Virus record (IMG/VR): IMGVR_UViG_2778261572_000003
Coordinates: 1 to 4,395 of that record
Direction: 5' to 3' (one strand)
Origin: a virus
Taxonomy: Duplodnaviria; Heunggongvirae; Uroviricota; Caudoviricetes
DNA length: 4,395 nucleotides
A model generated the notes under the pieces. It saw only the letters and a program-made list of their open reading frames with translations, did not search any database and was not told where the DNA came from. Shown here piece after piece: positions 1-4,395 of the stretch. The first letter of the stretch is position 1, and the number at the start of each line of letters is the position of its first letter. The position numbers were made by a program, and so were the translations under genes.

Positions 1-16
1 CCTCGTTGGTTAGCTA

Positions 17-235
17 TTAACGTGGGTATGTAATCATTCTGGCAATGCTTAATGCCGCTGCTTTTTCCAGCCTGGTGATATCCTGCTCCAGAGCGGACAG
101 ATTTTCAGCCTGCTTAGCCCTGGCTTCATTGGCCCATTTCAGATCCTGCGCTGCATTAATTTTCTGGCGCATCCACTCATAAAGTTCATCATCGGTATAG
201 TCTGGCGCGATGATGACGGGTTCTCGTTTCTGCAT
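17..235 (-). CDS. Hypothetical small early-left protein, 72 aa, predicted coiled-coil or helical
   Basis: Complete ORF with ATG at 233-235 and TAA at 17-19 on the minus strand. A consensus SD (AAGGAG, read from the complement of 241-246) sits 5 nt upstream of the ATG. The protein is charged and helical (DELYEWMRQKINAAQDLKWANEARAKQAENLSALEQDITRLEKAA). The opposite strand in the same register translates to implausible hydrophobic sequence with a stop. Confidence 0.7.
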   Translation of the reverse strand: MQKREPVIIAPDYTDDELYEWMRQKINAAQDLKWANEARAKQAENLSALEQDITRLEKAAALSIARMITYPR

Positions 236-246
236 GTCGGCTCCTT

Positions 247-274
247 GTGGTTAGCGTTGCCTGCTTTTAACCAC
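247..274. repeat. Inverted repeat GTGGTTA-N14-TAACCAC directly upstream of the SD of the 17..235 gene
   Basis: Arms at 247-253 and 268-274 are perfect reverse complements. The 14-nt spacer is long for a terminator hairpin and there is no U-run, so a protein-binding site or mRNA leader structure is more likely. Confidence 0.3.
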
Positions 275-306
275 GTCAGGCGAGGTGGTATCCTCTGAGG
301 GGTCTG

Positions 307-663
307 TTACTCGAGAGGAAATTGGTTATGGATACAATCAAGTTTTCTTGCCCAGAATGTGGTGGCGAAGTCTTTGACACATCCTTTAAGCCGCAGGGCT
401 CTGACAGTTTCGCGGGAGCCATCTGCAAAAATTGTGGTCACCTTGTAACTGAAGATTAGTCCTCGCAGTTCGATGACGAAATCGTTGACAATATCTTCGG
501 TGCACTCACCAGAGACTTTCTGAAATAAAGACGCATACCGCTTAGTTACCGCTCTGATAACTCTTACCTGTCCGGCAATGGCGCTGATGTCAATATAAAG
601 CGCCATTGCTGCTTCTTTGCCGATCCCGTGATGCCTTCCATTCTGATGTTTGACTTCGCCCAC
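307..663 (-). CDS. Hypothetical protein, 118 aa from GTG 661-663 (alternative ATG at 604-606 gives 99 aa); coding status uncertain
   Basis: Only long ORF in 300-800. GTG start is preceded by GAGG 8 nt upstream. It lies downstream of a candidate repressor-controlled leftward promoter at 746-774. Against it: 8 of its 10 Arg codons are rare (AGA/AGG/CGG/CGA), and its C-terminal third is exactly antisense, in codon register, to a zinc-ribbon ORF on the plus strand. The neighbouring 17..235 gene also uses rare Arg codons, so codon usage is not decisive. Confidence 0.4.
   Translation of the reverse strand: MGEVKHQNGRHHGIGKEAAMALYIDISAIAGQVRVIRAVTKRYASLFQKVSGECTEDIVNDFVIELRGLIFSYKVTTIFADGSRETVRALRLKGCVKDFATTFWARKLDCIHNQFPLE
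328..459 (+). CDS. Candidate small zinc-ribbon protein, 43 aa (MDTIKFSCPECGGEVFDTSFKPQGSDSFAGAICKNCGHLVTED), nested antisense in the 307..663 ORF
   Basis: ATG at 328 with GAGAGGAA (313-320) upstream, TAG at 457-459. Two CxxC knuckles (C8/C11 and C33/C36) are spaced as in a zinc ribbon. Codon choice is E. coli-like (GAA, GGT, GGC, CCG, CAG, ATC, AAA). No convincing sigma70 promoter was found in 236-327, and it lies inside a putative leftward operon, so it remains a candidate only. Confidence 0.3.
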   Translation: MDTIKFSCPECGGEVFDTSFKPQGSDSFAGAICKNCGHLVTED

Positions 664-745
664 TGAGAAATCCTCTGTTTCCCCTTAACGCCGGGGTGGC
701 GGAACTTTAGCCTGACAACGATGCGGTTCGTTGTTGATGGAATGA

Positions 746-797
746 ATGGTAAAACTATTGGTTTTATTGGTCAATAGGTAATGGAACATAAAGTTTT
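746..797 (-). promoter_or_regulatory. Putative repressor-controlled leftward (pL-like) promoter with two operator copies
   Basis: On the minus strand: -35 TTGACC (complement of 769-774), 17-nt spacer, -10 TACCAT (complement of 746-751). The spacer contains AAAACTATTGGTTTT (751-765), 14/15 identical to the operator at 1293-1307. A second, weaker AAC-N5-GTTTT site is at 785-797. Tandem TATTGGT repeats sit at 755-761 and 764-770. Confidence 0.45.
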
Positions 798-809
798 ATT
801 TGTGAGGAT

Positions 810-837
810 AAAAAAAGCGCCAAGGAGGCGCTTTTTT
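810..837. terminator. Bidirectional rho-independent terminator ending the repressor transcript
   Basis: A7 (810-816), stem GCGCC (817-821), loop AAGGA, stem GGCGC (827-831), T6 (832-837). It starts 9 nt beyond the repressor stop (846-848). The perfect symmetry makes it usable on both strands. Confidence 0.8.
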
Positions 838-845
838 CATGTAAC

Positions 846-1256
846 TTATTGTTTTTGAATATCATTGATTATGTCGTATACATCGTTTTTTAGAAGATCC
901 ATTTCATGAAGAATGCTTTTTGTGTGCATGATTAGTCTCAGCTTTTCCGTTTCTGGCAACTGATTAAAAAGGGACAATAGCGCCTTTTCTTTGTCGTCAA
1001 GCTGGATTAGTGGTGGTGCATCTTCTTCCTTTGAATGTTCATTTAGCGGCATAAAAAACCAATGTTCTGGTTTTCCTGTTACTGCGGCAAGTCTTTTTAA
1101 TCTTTCTCCGCTGGCAATGGTTTCTCCTGTTGCCCACTTACGCACAGCGGTATGGGACAGCATAACCTTTTTAGCCAGACCGGCTAACGACCAGCCATGT
1201 TCGCTCATTGCTTGCCGAACTCTCTCAGCAAATATTGGATGGTTTATTTTACTCAT
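846..1256 (-). CDS. Prophage repressor, XRE-family HTH, DicA/RacR-like short type without a peptidase S24 domain
   Basis: 136 aa. An HTH is visible at about residues 22-42 (SLAGLAKKVMLSHTAVRKWATGE). The C-terminal segment LLSLFNQLPETEKL resembles the DicA-type C-terminus as I recall it. It faces the Cro-like gene across an operator-rich intergenic region. There is no SD, and a TATACT -10 lies about 7 nt upstream of the ATG, consistent with a leaderless mRNA. Confidence 0.85.
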   Translation of the reverse strand: MSKINHPIFAERVRQAMSEHGWSLAGLAKKVMLSHTAVRKWATGETIASGERLKRLAAVTGKPEHWFFMPLNEHSKEEDAPPLIQLDDKEKALLSLFNQLPETEKLRLIMHTKSILHEMDLLKNDVYDIINDIQKQ

Positions 1257-1368
1257 TTTTTAAGTATACAACCAAAGGTTTCACCAATCAGCAAAACTAT
1301 AGGTTTTGTGTTGAAACTTATAGTTTTTGATGGTAGCGTAGGTGAAATTAATAGTACTGGTGGAAAGT
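1257..1368. promoter_or_regulatory. Divergent promoter/operator region (pRM-like leftward, pR-like rightward) with three related operator sites
   Basis: Operators of form AAAAC-N5-GTTTT: AAAACTATAGGTTTT (1293-1307), AAACTTATAGTTTTT (1314-1328), and a degenerate copy ACAACCAAAGGTTTC (1268-1282, 11/15). Centres are 21-25 bp apart. Rightward candidate: -35 TTGAAA (1311-1316), 17-bp spacer, extended -10 TGgTAGCGT (1331-1339). Leftward candidate: -10 TATACT (complement of 1263-1268) with a weak -35. Confidence 0.65.
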
Positions 1369-1644
1369 ATGAGTAATCAAATTCACGATAAGATCTCTAA
1401 AAAAATGTCGAAAACTGACATTGGCAAACACTTTGGCATTAGCTCCCAGGCCGTAGGCAAGTGGTTCATTAAAGGCAAGGTTCCTGCTGAACGCGTGTCG
1501 TCACTCTGTGCATTACTGAATTGGGAAATTACTCCCCACGAACTTCGCCCTGACATTTATCCCAACCCAACAGATGGACTACCTTGTGGAAATAAGTGTA
1601 TGTCGAATGAATCACTGGCGGTGAACAATGATATTCACTCCTGA
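1369..1644 (+). CDS. Cro-like / YdaS-family HTH protein, 91 aa from ATG 1369
   Basis: HTH (IGKHFGISSQAVGKWF) followed by the HELRPD motif I associate with the YdaS/Cro-like family. ATG 1369 is preceded by GGTGG (1359-1363). The ORF-track start at 1342 (GTG) lies upstream of the predicted transcription start, so 1369 is preferred. An ATG at 1405 is also possible but has no SD. Stop TGA at 1642-1644 overlaps the next gene. Confidence 0.75.
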   Translation: MSNQIHDKISKKMSKTDIGKHFGISSQAVGKWFIKGKVPAERVSSLCALLNWEITPHELRPDIYPNPTDGLPCGNKCMSNESLAVNNDIHS

Positions 1645-2149
1645 GCAGGCTCGCGAGGCTCTGGATGCCTGGGTATGCCGACCAGGAATGACGCAGGAGC
1701 AGGCGACGATATTAATCACGGAAGCATTCTGGGCTCTGAAAGAACGCCCGAACATCGATGTTCAACGCGTCACGTTTGATGATGGCGCGGTTGATCAACG
1801 GGCGCTGGGCGTTAACCGGGTGAAGATATTCGAACGCTGGAAAGCGATCGACACCAGGGATAAGCGGGAAAAATTCACGGCGTTGATTCCGGCAATCATG
1901 GAGGCTATCCGGATAAGTGATTTCAGGTTGTATTGTGAAATTACTGATGGAAAAAGCATTACGTACATGCTCGCCGGGTTAAATAAAGAATATGGCGATG
2001 TGGTGGAGTCCGGTCTGCTTTTGGCAGATCCCGCTGTTGTGGAGCGCGAGACTGACGAGCTTATAGAAAAAGCTATTGCTTTCAAGCATGCGTATCGTCA
2101 GCAATATCAACAAAAAGCCGGATGGAATTATGAGTCTTCTTTTTGCTGA
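1628..2149 (+). CDS. YdaT-family protein (CII-position regulator; annotated in databases as putative toxin YdaT), 173 aa
   Basis: Sits second in the rightward operon with a 17-nt overlap onto the Cro-like gene. The segment KIFERWKAIDTRDKREKFTALIPAIMEAI matches my recollection of the conserved YdaT core. The family call is from memory, not a search. Confidence 0.7.
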   Translation: MIFTPEQAREALDAWVCRPGMTQEQATILITEAFWALKERPNIDVQRVTFDDGAVDQRALGVNRVKIFERWKAIDTRDKREKFTALIPAIMEAIRISDFRLYCEITDGKSITYMLAGLNKEYGDVVESGLLLADPAVVERETDELIEKAIAFKHAYRQQYQQKAGWNYESSFC

Positions 2150-3095
2150 ACGCCCACTGGTTATTAACACGCAGCTGGCGATGAAAATTGGTCTGAACGA
2201 AGCCATCGTGTTGCAGCAGCTGCATTACTGGTTGAGAGATACCGGTTCCGGCATGGAATGTGATGGTGTTCGCTGGATTTATAATACAACAGAACAATGG
2301 CTGGAACAGTTCCCGTTCTGGTCAGAGTCAACGTTAAAACGCGCATTTGCAAGTCTGAAAGCGCTGGGGCTTTTGCGTTGCGAAAAGCTCAACAAATCAA
2401 AGCGTGACATGACTAATTTTTACACGATTAATTACGAGAGCGAGCTTTTAGATGGTGGCAAAGTGAGCGAATCCATCAGGTCAAAATGCGCCGCTCCATC
2501 AGGTCAAAATGACACGATGGAAGAGGCCAAAATGACACGCTCCATTGGTTCAAAACGACACAATGTCATCGGGTCAAAATGGCCTGATGATCTTACAGAG
2601 AATACAACAGAGATTACTACAGAGAATAAAAACACTTCTCGTCCGGAAGCTTCGCAACCGGACATGCAGACGGCTGAACAGGATTTTTTAAACCGACACC
2701 CTGACGCGGTTGTGTTCAGTGCGAAAAAACGCCAGTGGGGCAGCCAGGAAGATTTAGCGTGTGCGCAGTGGATCTGGGGACGAATCGTGAGTCTTTACGA
2801 GCAGGCTGCCAGCGATGATGGCGAAATCATGCGACCGAAAGAACCCAACTGGACTGCATGGGCCAATGATGTGCGCACAATGCGGATGCTGGATGGCAGA
2901 ACTCACAGACAAATTTGCGAAATGTTTGGTCGGGTACAGCGGGATCCATTCTGGGTAAAAAACGTCATGAGCCCGTCAAAGCTTCGCGAAAAATGGGATG
3001 AGCTGGTTATTCGTCTGGGGCGTTCACCTGTACAGCGTTGCGTGAATCACATTTCTGAACCGGACACCGAAATTCCGCCGGGATTCAGGGGGTAA
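2130..3095 (+). CDS. Replication initiation protein, lambda O-like / YdaU-position, 321 aa from ATG 2130
   Basis: The ORF opens at 2076, but 2130 is the first ATG that minimises overlap with the upstream gene, giving a 20-nt overlap. The N-terminal domain looks like a winged-helix DNA binder. The gene contains five 23-bp iterons and an adjacent AT-rich repeat block, as lambda ori sits within O. It is immediately followed by a DnaC-like loader. Confidence 0.8.
   Translation: MSLLFAERPLVINTQLAMKIGLNEAIVLQQLHYWLRDTGSGMECDGVRWIYNTTEQWLEQFPFWSESTLKRAFASLKALGLLRCEKLNKSKRDMTNFYTINYESELLDGGKVSESIRSKCAAPSGQNDTMEEAKMTRSIGSKRHNVIGSKWPDDLTENTTEITTENKNTSRPEASQPDMQTAEQDFLNRHPDAVVFSAKKRQWGSQEDLACAQWIWGRIVSLYEQAASDDGEIMRPKEPNWTAWANDVRTMRMLDGRTHRQICEMFGRVQRDPFWVKNVMSPSKLREKWDELVIRLGRSPVQRCVNHISEPDTEIPPGFRG
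2472..2584. repeat. Five direct iterons (23-bp period), putative prophage replication origin inside the initiator gene
   Basis: TCCATCAGGTCAAAATG occurs exactly at 2472-2488 and 2495-2511. Related copies have cores GGCCAAAATGACACG (2525-2539), GGTTCAAAACGACAC (2547-2561) and GGTCAAAATGG (2572-2582). Core starts are 2479, 2502, 2525, 2547/2548 and 2572. Confidence 0.8.
2594..2633. repeat. AT-rich block with three 12-bp tandem repeats (ACAGAGA core), candidate DNA-unwinding element next to the iterons
   Basis: The ACAGAGA core recurs at 2595-2601, 2607-2613 and 2619-2625 with a 12-bp period, in an AT-rich stretch immediately downstream of the iterons. It encodes the repetitive peptide LTENTTEITTENKN. 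Confidence 0.5.
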
Positions 3096-3101
3096 CGAAG
3101 C

Positions 3102-3848
3102 ATGAAAAATATTGCGACAGGCGGTGTTCTTGAACGCATCCGTAAGCTGGCTCCGCAGCATGTAACCGCGCCATACCGAACAGTGGACGAGTGGCGCGAG
3201 TGGCAACTTGCAGAAGGCCAGAAGCGTTGCGAGGAGATCAACCGCCAGAATCGTCAGTTGCGGGTGGAAAAAATTCTGAATCGCTCCGGCATCCAGCCGT
3301 TGCACCGCAAGTGCTCGTTTGCGAATTACCAGGTGCAGAATGACGGCCAGCGATACGCGTTGAGCCAGGCGAAATCCATCGCCGATGAACTGATGACCGG
3401 ATGCACAAATTTCGCATTCAGCGGAAAACCTGGTACCGGGAAAAACCACTTAGCGGCGGCTATCGGAAATCGCCTGCTGAAAGATGGCCAGACAGTGATT
3501 GTGGTTACCGTGGCTGATGTTATGAGTGCTCTACACGCCAGCTATGACGACGGGCAATCAGGCGAAAAATTTTTGCGGGAACTGTGCGAAGTGGATCTGC
3601 TGATTCTTGATGAAATTGGCATTCAGCGCGAGACGAAAAACGAGCAGGTGGTACTGCACCAGATTGTTGATCGCCGGACAGCGTCGATGCGCAGCGTGGG
3701 AATGCTGACAAACCTGAACTATGAGGCCATGAAAACGCTGCTCGGCGAGCGGATTATGGATCGCATGACCATGAACGGCGGGCGATGGGTGAGTTTTAAC
3801 TGGGAGAGCTGGCGTTCAAATGTCGGCTATTTGAGGGTTGTTAAGTAA
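3102..3848 (+). CDS. DnaC-family replicative helicase loader (AAA+ ATPase), prophage copy, 248 aa
   Basis: Walker A GKPGTGKN at 3423-3446 and Walker B DLLILDEIG. Similarity to host DnaC, as I recall its sequence, runs along the whole length (MKN..., NRSGIQPLH, CSFANY, FSGKPGTGKNHLAAAI, VDRR, GMLTN, LLGERIMDRM, FNW). SD GGGGG at 3087-3091. Start is 7 nt after the initiator stop. Confidence 0.93.
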   Translation: MKNIATGGVLERIRKLAPQHVTAPYRTVDEWREWQLAEGQKRCEEINRQNRQLRVEKILNRSGIQPLHRKCSFANYQVQNDGQRYALSQAKSIADELMTGCTNFAFSGKPGTGKNHLAAAIGNRLLKDGQTVIVVTVADVMSALHASYDDGQSGEKFLRELCEVDLLILDEIGIQRETKNEQVVLHQIVDRRTASMRSVGMLTNLNYEAMKTLLGERIMDRMTMNGGRWVSFNWESWRSNVGYLRVVK

Positions 3849-3862
3849 TTTCATGAGGGCTT

Positions 3863-4258
3863 ATGGCAAAACCTTTTACACCCGAACAGCGGGAAGAGCT
3901 GAAGGCACGAATTATCGGGTTGGTACGCAAAAATGGACGCATGACGATGTCGCAACTGGAGAGAGCGACGGGAGCTGGCTGGCATTCGGTCCGACGCTGC
4001 CTTGTGGATGTACTGGCTTGTGGTGATTTATACATGTCCGGGGAATACGGTGTTTTTGCATCAGAGCAGGCGTATCGTGAATGGCGTAAGACACCGGAGA
4101 AAACAACTGACCAGACACTGATTCGAAAGTTACCAGACGGAGAAATACGCCGCTACGACAGACACCTGAACATAATTTGCCGTGAGTGCCGGAAGAGTGA
4201 AGTTATGCAGCGAGTGCTGGCGTTCTATCAGGGAGATTTTCAGGAGGTGATGGAGTGA
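3863..4258 (+). CDS. Hypothetical protein, 131 aa, with a possible N-terminal winged-helix-like segment
   Basis: ATG 3863 with AGGG 4 nt upstream. Same strand and tight spacing after the DnaC-like gene. Residues 10-55 (ELKARIIGLVRKNGRMTMSQLERATGAGWHSVRRCLVDVL) look like a wHTH. One CxxC at the C-terminus. No family recognised. Confidence 0.65.
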   Translation: MAKPFTPEQREELKARIIGLVRKNGRMTMSQLERATGAGWHSVRRCLVDVLACGDLYMSGEYGVFASEQAYREWRKTPEKTTDQTLIRKLPDGEIRRYDRHLNIICRECRKSEVMQRVLAFYQGDFQEVME

Positions 4259-4395
4259 GGGTGAGGGTTTATATCGCCGGTCCGATGACCGGGTATAAAA
4301 ATTTCAACCGTGAGGCGTTCCACAAGGCGGAAGAGGAACCGAAACGGGAAGGGCATACAGTCTTAAACCCGGCAGTACTTCCGGACGGACTGACA
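4255..4395 (+). CDS. DUF4406-like (nucleoside 2-deoxyribosyltransferase-like) protein, N-terminal fragment; 3' end beyond window
   Basis: GTG 4255 overlaps the upstream TGA (GTGA at 4255-4258), with AGGAGG at 4242-4247. Translation VRVRVYIAGPMTGYKNFNREAFHKAEEEPKREGHTVLNP matches the YIAGPMTG...NF...F...G..V.NP N-terminal signature I associate with DUF4406. The frame stays open to the window end. The ORF track misses it because no stop is present. Confidence 0.55.
   Translation, partial: MRVRVYIAGPMTGYKNFNREAFHKAEEEPKREGHTVLNPAVLPDGLT

Follow-up and report, generated by a model that had tools for sequence, protein, structure and literature searches.

Are the two small overlapping genes that follow the divergent repressor gene of a lambdoid Escherichia coli prophage a toxin-antitoxin module, or are they regulators of the prophage switch? 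The question is raised by the ydaS-type and ydaT-type genes of a 4,395-nucleotide (nt) stretch of caudoviral DNA (positions 1 to 4,395 of IMG/VR record IMGVR_UViG_2778261572_000003; hereafter the window), which represents the immunity and replication region of such a prophage and which we compared with more than 390 related loci. An earlier note on this DNA, made from the sequence alone, had assigned the pair to the YdaS and YdaT families and left it open whether this copy is toxic, regulatory or both. Its account of the literature is accurate: Pfam still names both families as toxins, while later papers (Jobling 2018, PMC5917428; Jurenas 2021, PMC8630535; Prolic-Kalinsek 2023, PMC9986795; Wons 2025, PMC11879457) treat YdaS and YdaT as Cro and CII analogues, and loss of the repressor RacR in the Rac prophage is indeed toxic through ydaS/ydaT (PMC5700377, PMC5700373). 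In near-identical E. coli prophages, RefSeq labels the first open reading frame (ORF) 'YdaS family helix-turn-helix protein' or 'transcriptional regulator' and the second 'toxin YdaT family protein'. Judging from the comparisons below and by analogy with studied homologues, we find that the pair very probably consists of ordinary Cro-like and CII-like regulators of the prophage switch. Further, we predict an 18-base-pair (bp) YdaT-box over the ydaT start codon and a leftward promoter that it would serve.

The pair belongs to the YdaS and YdaT families

Both ORFs lie where the earlier note had placed them and, as the leading pair of rightward genes, occupy the Cro and CII positions. The ORF list and the neighbouring genes agree on this, the rightward order after the divergent repressor gene being cro-like ydaS, cII-like ydaT, an O-like gene and a DnaC-like gene (Table 1). 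The note's family assignments likewise hold, since profile searches place both proteins above the Pfam gathering cut-offs.

The YdaS-like protein scores 39.3 bits against PF15943 (cut-off 30, E 5.7e-10, residues 14-66) and matches phrog_35, labelled 'transcriptional repressor', with an E-value of 2e-21. It carries a helix-turn-helix (HTH) at about residues 14-34, and the HELRPD motif that had been read after the HTH is found at residues 57-62 (nt 1537-1554). The protein also matches PDB entry 3bd1, deposited as 'Cro protein' (E 4e-6), and its PHELRPD (residues 56-62) aligns with CEELRPD of Rac YdaS and CRELRPD of 3bd1. As expected of the Cro position, its gene is the first of an operon divergent from the repressor gene, with a 112-bp intergenic region holding three palindromes between them. 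Operator binding and repression of PRM, that is, Cro function, have been shown only for the YdaS of prophage CP-933P (PMC8630535).

The YdaT-like protein scores 25.8 bits against PF06254 (cut-off 21, E 1.5e-5) and matches phrog_163, 'CII-like transcriptional activator', with an E-value of 2.4e-40. Because a sequence-only search of the PDB was marginal for this protein, a structure comparison was needed to settle its membership. An AlphaFold2 model, built from a 19-sequence alignment from which Rac YdaT was left out, is all-helical with a predicted local distance difference test (pLDDT) score of 83.9 and a long loop (36-56) between the HTH helices. The top two Foldseek matches of this model are 8bt1 and 3c4r, each with a probability of 1.0. 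The model fits the 8bt1-type fold, a POU-like all-alpha HTH with a long alpha2-alpha3 loop and a long C-terminal helix, although its C-terminal region is longer and is predicted as two helices; the solved YdaT relatives are tetramers. Seven columns do not vary across a 17-sequence alignment with Rac YdaT among its members: N63, R70, W71, L86, P88, A89 and I90. The predicted recognition helix (about N63-W71) contains R70 and W71, which align with R57 and W58 of Rac YdaT, the CP-933P counterpart being R60. In Rac, R57 and W58 are reported to be DNA-binding and fold residues (PMC11879457). Membership of the YdaT family is thus supported by profile, modelled fold and key residues.

The subfamily around this YdaT-like protein is narrow, with 66 clusters at E ≤ 1e-3 in an exhaustive search of 1.84 billion cluster representatives, and a viral scan with P0108 found no relatives. 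No NCBIfam model matches either protein of the pair, nor does either match the Pfam families of lambda CII or lambda Cro at E-values up to 0.01. Given the lack of a match to these lambda families, the relation of the pair to lambda Cro and CII is one of functional analogy only.

A predicted YdaT-box over the ydaT start codon

Two YdaT binding sites have been footprinted. The Rac site is ATGATT-CATGAA-AATCAA, with the ydaT ATG in the spacer (PMC11879457), and the DNase footprint of CP-933P YdaT covers TTGATT-N6-AATCAA at the ydaS/ydaT junction (PMC9986795). Comparison with these boxes points to the inverted repeat GTGAAC-AATGAT-ATTCAC at 1621-1638 of the window. Its position corresponds to that of both footprinted boxes and its register to that of the Rac box, with the ATG at positions 8-10 of the 18-mer, and it is the single exact match to GTGAAY-N6-RTTCAC in the window. 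Every one of the 202 unique 800-nt contexts taken from the first set of loci has TGA-N10-TCA spanning the ydaT ATG. We also gathered loci for five further YdaT clades beside that of the window, and in every clade an 18-bp site of the general form xTGAxx-N6-xxTCAx covers the ydaT start codon.

The half-sites differ by clade. The site is TTGATT-CATGAA-AATCAR in the Rac and CP-933P type clade, YTGATW-TATGGA-AATCAA in the P0119/P0106 type, KTGAAC-AATGAW-AWTCAC in the window type and STGAAC-AATGRY-GATCAS in the Citrobacter type. The half-site is therefore TGATT in Rac, CP-933P and P0119 and TGAAC in the window and Citrobacter clades, and its type follows the recognition helix, F/Y-[H]-R-W-L going with TGATT and I-F-E/Q-R-W-K/R with TGAAC. 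The same box stands beside cro genes of the DicC type and beside at least six alleles of the YdaS type, so that it tracks ydaT and not the cro/repressor (immunity) allele.

Several features argue that the DNA of the box itself is under constraint. The MITPET clade, with a protein shorter by one residue and an ATG displaced by 3 nt, has retained the half-site spacing (RTGAAC-AACCAT-GATCAC). The left half-site persists whether the upstream gene overlaps ydaT by 17, 7 or 4 nt or ends 22 nt earlier. Finally, the M-I-F variant seen in the window alters the amino acids and retains the TC-A core. Taken together, these patterns suggest that the predicted box is probably functional in the window copy.

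Further copies of the motif occur near some boxes. In the window, a second exact TGAAC-N8-TCAC lies inside ydaS at 1487-1504, 134 bp from the box, and a weaker copy covers the ydaS start codon at 1369-1386. As secondary YdaT sites, these two TGA-N10-TCAC matches were set aside as probably due to chance, being found only with the ydaS allele of the window and at no other locus; they may be chance, or allele-specific secondary sites that would permit looping by a YdaT tetramer. Rac-clade loci (L093-L172; 65 unique contexts) have a second TGA-N10-TCA 20 nt downstream of the first, at +14 from the ydaT ATG, which in Rac of K-12 is TGAGCACATCGAATCA. It would be a candidate tandem site, two helical turns away.

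A predicted YdaT-dependent leftward promoter

We then considered the DNA to the left of the box, taking 70-nt flanks read leftward on the strand antisense to ydaT and clustering them at less than 70% ungapped identity into 29 clusters. In 28 of these, the distance from the box edge to the start of a TAnnnT hexamer is exactly 20 nt (14 clusters) or exactly 21 nt (the other 14), against a background frequency of 0.012 per position elsewhere. The same pattern is found in 15 of 16 contexts of the CP-933P/3c4r clade. The flanks are otherwise unrelated: they are the ends of various cro genes, read in various frames, or, in Rac of K-12, intergenic DNA (hexamer TATGAT). In the window the hexamer is TACACT, read leftward from 1600 to 1595, and the predicted promoter has no -35 element, with CACCGC at that place.

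This geometry predicts that a -10 element at -12 to -7 would put the box at about -50 to -33, with its centre near -41.5 or -42.5, the position of a class II activator. For the window copy, we regard the placement of the -10 at 1595-1600 as evenly balanced. For the published PRE933P reporter, which YdaT activates, a primer within ydaT codons 4-10 was used in the amplification; its fragment therefore holds the box and the TAnnnT flank and is compatible with the predicted placement. Another minus-strand candidate, TCGCGA-17-TATCAT (1656→1628), was rejected: its -10 depends on ATGATA, a minor variant that the window has, and is absent from the majority variant ATGAAA.

It is possible, if somewhat doubtful, that YdaT-type CII analogues all share one unmapped architecture, in which an 18-bp inverted repeat over the start codon is followed by a 20-21 bp spacer and an antisense -10 and the activator sits at about -41.5/-42.5. 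If so, the working PRE of Rac and of CP-933P would be placed differently from the published models, and both the DNA site and the protein would constrain the first ydaT codons (M-x-I/F followed by a codon whose first base is A). The window clade would also have switched its half-site specificity (TGAAC for TGATT), and its CII-like regulator might act independently of co-resident Rac- or CP-933P-type prophages.

Gene overlap and exchange of the upstream partner

The earlier note had pointed out that ATG 1628 lies inside the upstream gene. This corresponds to a 17-nt overlap, which we find in 83 of 83 loci of the window's ydaT clade (ydaT at least 91% identical). The overlap is not family-wide, measuring 4 or 7 nt in two distant homologues and giving way to a 22-nt gap in Rac.

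The upstream partner varies among these 83 loci. Mostly it is a 76-residue DicC-type Cro in three N-terminal variants; the others are at least six YdaS-type alleles whose HTH halves cannot be aligned and whose C-terminal halves (TPHELRPDIYPNPTDGLPC...) are conserved. DNA homology between YdaS-type alleles starts near window position 1519 (loci L004, L009, L021, L025-L027, L076 and L078), and conservation is confined to the 3' half of the gene (from about W52/T55; 1519-1644), the repressor gene, operators and HTH half of cro being exchanged wholesale. This places the boundary of the immunity cassette within cro itself. Compared with DicC-type loci, homology starts only at TGAACAATGA, 7 nt before the ydaT ATG. 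The repressor/ydaS allele of the window is rare, occurring at full length in 5 of 5426 complete E. coli genomes. Such free swapping of the partner argues against a cognate toxin-antitoxin pair.

Proposed mechanism and alternative explanations

We propose the following scheme. In the repressed state, the 136-residue repressor would bind the AAC-N5-GTT palindromes of the OR set (1270-1325) and the OL-like set (753-853), silencing PR and PL. Firing of PR would lead to transcription of ydaS, ydaT, the O-like gene and the dnaC-like gene. The YdaS-type Cro analogue, a small HTH protein, would then compete for the repressor's operators and counteract it, while the YdaT-type CII analogue, with its POU-like HTH and C-terminal helices, most likely binds GTGAAC-AATGAT-ATTCAC across the start codon of its own gene. 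Sitting at about -41.5, it would switch on the leftward promoter lacking a -35, with its -10 at TACACT and its start near 1588. The leftward transcript would be antisense to ydaS, continue over OR and enter the repressor gene, and would raise repressor synthesis, favouring the establishment or re-establishment of repression. Box binding and activation of a reverse promoter are carried over here from experiments on homologues.

Several points weigh against parts of this scheme. The Pfam margin of the YdaT-like protein is small, only 5 bits over the cut-off; the sequence-only PDB search (phmmer) gave E-values of 0.03 for 8bt1 and 0.04 for 3c4r; and identity to the characterised YdaT proteins is low, at 25-29% over structural alignments. 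The window half-sites TGAAC...TCAC are unlike the footprinted TTGATT...AATCAA, which makes binding an extrapolation, and the box overlaps two coding frames, so that its conservation is possibly in part a coding effect. The published promoter assignments also depart from the -41.5 geometry: activation in Rac was credited to PracR4, about 190 bp from the box (Wons et al., PMC11879457), and the CP-933P box was described as lying downstream of the proposed PRE (PMC9986795). Finally, the window's TACACT agrees with the consensus at only 4 of 6 positions, and some sister alleles have TACTCT (3 of 6).

The database names speak for a true type II toxin-antitoxin module, in which one protein poisons and its partner neutralises it by direct binding: Pfam uses 'YdaS_toxin' and 'YdaT_toxin', RefSeq the toxin label for YdaT given above. 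The two genes do form a small operon with an overlap, and RacR depletion is lethal via ydaS/ydaT in K-12 (PMC5700377, PMC5700373). However, both proteins are of the HTH DNA-binding type, YdaS with its Cro-type match and YdaT with its POU-like fold, and their genes, with the repressor gene on one side and the replication genes on the other, take the places of cro and cII. No PADLOC model matches either protein, and the same ydaT stands interchangeably beside unrelated DicC-type and several YdaS-type partners, which a cognate pair would not tolerate. Toxin-antitoxin status has also been rejected experimentally for homologues. Of the two studied YdaT proteins, that of CP-933P lacks toxicity (PMC8630535), and that of Rac is toxic, with upregulation of host rcsA as the proposed route (PMC11879457); the half-sites of the window clade differ from those of both, and any toxicity of the window copy would be a matter of extrapolation. 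We consider a toxin-antitoxin module extremely improbable. Box and hexamer could also be by-products of coding and translation initiation (a conserved M-x-I at the N-terminus, the spacing of the Shine-Dalgarno sequence, the end of the preceding gene), with YdaT binding elsewhere or nowhere. The right half-site does fall in ydaT codons 2-4 and, in the window clade, the left one in the last codons of the cro-like gene, and within-clade sequences are more than 90% identical, so that conservation there is little informative. Against this stand the left half-site kept upstream of the ATG at every overlap or gap, the MITPET ATG that moved by 3 nt when the half-site spacing did not, the I2-F3 variant of the window with its intact TC-A core, and a hexamer that falls in unrelated genes and varying reading frames or, in Rac, outside coding sequence. 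This makes a mere by-product very unlikely.

The box might instead be mainly an autoregulatory operator or roadblock that limits PR transcription of ydaT and the replication genes, the TAnnnT spacing having some other cause. It lies within the PR transcription unit at the ydaT start, YdaT proteins have been termed 'repressors' (PMC9986795), and Rac YdaT also binds over PydaST (PMC11879457). However, when YdaT bound the Rac box, ydaT expression did not change but the activity of reverse-promoter and racR reporters rose up to 29-fold (PMC11879457). A leftward fragment containing the box is activated by CP-933P YdaT (PMC8630535), and an antisense TAnnnT at a fixed distance across almost all of the unrelated flanks is hard to explain without a promoter. 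We find a roadblock unlikely, and prefer the reading of YdaT as a CII-like activator of leftward transcription.

Repressor, putative operators and other features of the window

Table 1. Positions of genes, sites and promoter candidates in the window
Feature	Positions	Strand	Basis or remark
ydfC-like gene	17-235	minus	left arm
Antisense ORF pair	307-663		
Candidate PL-like leftward early promoter, TTGACC-17 nt-TACCAT	746-774 (774→746)	minus	putative; sole strict promoter-scan hit
Operator-like palindromes AAC-N5-GTT (three), OL-like set	753-763, 785-795, 843-853	.	left of repressor gene
Predicted intrinsic terminator, hairpin and U-run	811-838	minus	downstream of repressor gene; fold -19 kcal/mol, z = -7.0; then UUUUUUU
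CI-like prophage repressor, 136 aa, HTH_3, without peptidase domain	846-1256	minus	PF01381 E 6.9e-10; divergent from ydaS
Candidate PRM, CTGATT-17 nt-TATACT	1263-1291 (1291→1263)	minus	putative; lenient promoter scan
Operator palindromes AAC-N5-GTT (three), OR3/OR2/OR1-like	1270-1280, 1295-1305, 1315-1325	.	112-bp repressor-ydaS intergenic region; overlap PRM and PR candidates
Candidate PR, TTGAAA-17 nt (TG extended -10)-TAGCGT	1311-1339	+	putative, low confidence; read from sequence
ydaS-type cro analogue, 91 aa	1369-1644 (ATG 1369, TGA 1642-1644)	+	PF15943, PHROG 35
Predicted -10 hexamer TACACT, leftward promoter in lambda PRE role	1595-1600 (1600→1595)	minus	comparison; start predicted near 1588
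Predicted YdaT-box GTGAAC-AATGAT-ATTCAC, inverted repeat, ydaT ATG in spacer	1621-1638	.	comparison with footprinted boxes
ydaT-type cII analogue, 173 aa	1628-2149 (ATG 1628, TGA 2147-2149)	+	PF06254, PHROG 163
Replication initiator O-like gene	2130-3095	+	20-nt overlap with ydaT; PHROG 391, E 3e-96
DnaC-like helicase loader (YdaV-like)	3102-3848	+	NCBIfam NF009043 508 bits; PHROG 50 E 8e-86
DUF977 protein (PHROG label: Ren-like exclusion protein)	3863-4258	+	PF06163 E 2.7e-63; PHROG 142 E 4e-44

The repressor scores 47.6 bits against the DicA model (NCBIfam NF007257), under the cut-off of 101. By sequence it is an HTH_3 protein of DicA-like length that is weakly DicA-like and not a DicA orthologue. 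As it has no peptidase domain, RecA-type self-cleavage is not expected. RefSeq starts the homologous repressor at an internal Met (120 residues); the 136-residue start is favoured by the alignment to the DicA profile, which begins at residue 7, and by the -10-like TATACT (1268→1263), from which transcription would begin at the A of ATG 1256. This ATG has no Shine-Dalgarno sequence before it, and the mRNA from the candidate PRM is probably leaderless, starting on that A. Leaderless repressor mRNAs are known for lambda cI and for paaR2 of CP-933P (PMC8630535).

The palindrome AAC-N5-GTT occurs six times in the window against 1.19 expected, a number reached in 0 of 200 shuffles. The OL-like palindromes resemble the OR set, for example AAAACTATTGGTTTT compared with AAAACTATAGGTTTT, and that at 753-763 sits inside the spacer of the candidate PL; together, the 753-853 palindromes and TTGACC-17-TACCAT resemble an OL/PL unit. 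The promoter candidates PRM, PR and PL are guesses at the level of consensus. The candidate PR leaves a 5' leader with the Shine-Dalgarno sequence GGTGGA (1357-1362), and is preferred to TTGATG-17-AATAGT (1327-1355), which would leave no space for a ydaS Shine-Dalgarno sequence. The hairpin at 811-838, missed by a strict terminator scan and recovered by folding, lies between the repressor gene and the PL-like region with A-runs and T-runs on its flanks, and could terminate transcription both ways.

In the left arm, two ORFs with complete opposite-strand overlap each have family support. Residues 20-118 of the minus-strand ORF (307-663) match phrog_21318 (E 1.4e-65), and the plus-strand ORF (328-459), encoding a 43-residue CxxC protein, scores 47.5 bits against NCBIfam NF047912 (ECs_2282 family; cut-off 37). 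At this place, genomes that share the immunity allele have ydfB and a DUF1391 gene instead. No N-like gene is visible within the window, and an Rfam search found nothing credible (the best scores were 22.7 bits, gathering cut-off 70, and 20.1 bits, cut-off 43) and no OOP-like RNA family.

The closest genome matches of the window are 96-98% identical yet mosaic. A scan of genome contigs with one alignment (A4) yielded just 9 loci. Three loci (L086, L087 and L088) have an E. coli-type ydaT (91-92% identity) in metagenome-assembled genomes named Collinsella, Bacillota and Veillonella parvula. These contigs are probably binning contaminants and do not reflect true hosts.

Comparison with known systems

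Published work and the annotation of RefSeq and PHROG already cover the gene pair, its families and its Cro/CII reading, and the general picture of lambdoid switches is unchanged by our findings. What is new is a divergent 173-residue member of a YdaT clade whose identity to the two studied YdaT proteins is only about 25-29%; the predicted architecture of box, 20-21 bp spacer and -10 with clade-specific half-sites would be a modest addition. The locus is another case where the labels 'toxin YdaT' and 'YdaS toxin' mislead, and it draws attention to a YdaT clade that is widespread in E. coli prophages and uncharacterised. It also yields base-level predictions of where YdaT binds, which promoter it drives and how YdaT clades might cross-talk in one genome, the last of which bears on how multiple resident prophages keep or lose repression.

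CP-933P of E. coli O157:H7 (PDB 8bt1; PMC8630535, PMC9986795) shares with the window the divergent repressor, the Cro-like YdaS and the CII-like YdaT, whose long loop between the HTH helices and R-W pair of the recognition helix are alike. The 6-N6-6 inverted repeat at the ydaS/ydaT junction and the TAnnnT 20-21 nt leftward are also common to both. However, the YdaT-like protein of the window has about 29% structure-based identity to that of CP-933P and, at 173 residues, a longer C-terminal region, and its predicted half-sites are TGAAC/TTCAC rather than TTGATT/AATCAA. The window repressor is a DicA-like HTH protein and not PaaR2, there is no paaA2-parE2 toxin-antitoxin module in the window, and its ydaS overlaps ydaT by 17 nt.

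In the case of Rac of E. coli K-12 (PMC11879457, PMC5700377, PMC5917428), both proteins belong to the same Pfam families as those of the window, YdaS has the ELRPD motif, the YdaT-box holds the ydaT ATG in its spacer in the same register, and replication genes lie downstream with a DnaC/YdaV-like gene in each. The similarity is short, with 35% over 51 residues for YdaS and 45% over 29 residues for YdaT, and the window repressor has no similarity to RacR. Rac has a gap between ydaS and ydaT where the window has an overlap. The residue before R-W is Glu in the window and His56 in Rac, where mutation of H56 and R57 together abolished DNA binding (PMC11879457). Targeting of host rcsA and toxicity, shown for Rac, cannot be assumed for the window.

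The likeness to lambda Cro, CII and PRE is one of gene positions and logic. As in lambda, the second rightward gene would encode an activator whose predicted site overlaps the -35 region of a weak leftward promoter, the predicted PRE-type transcript would be antisense to cro and read into the repressor gene, and the repressor mRNA from the candidate PRM is probably leaderless. The window proteins have no sequence relationship to the lambda CII and Cro Pfam families. Lambda cro and cII are separated by nutR and tR1, whereas the cro-like and cII-like genes of the window overlap. The predicted site of the window is an inverted repeat, in contrast to the direct TTGC-N6-TTGC repeat of lambda (a contrast drawn in PMC9986795).

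Finally, the window resembles the DicA/DicC region of Qin-like prophages, including PhiR42_1, in its ydfC-type left arm and its weakly DicA-like repressor. The Cro slot of the window is of the YdaS type and not of the 76-residue DicC type, to which it has no significant similarity, whereas the 'cII' of phage PhiR42_1 is 91% identical to the YdaT-like protein and its gene has the same 17-nt overlap.

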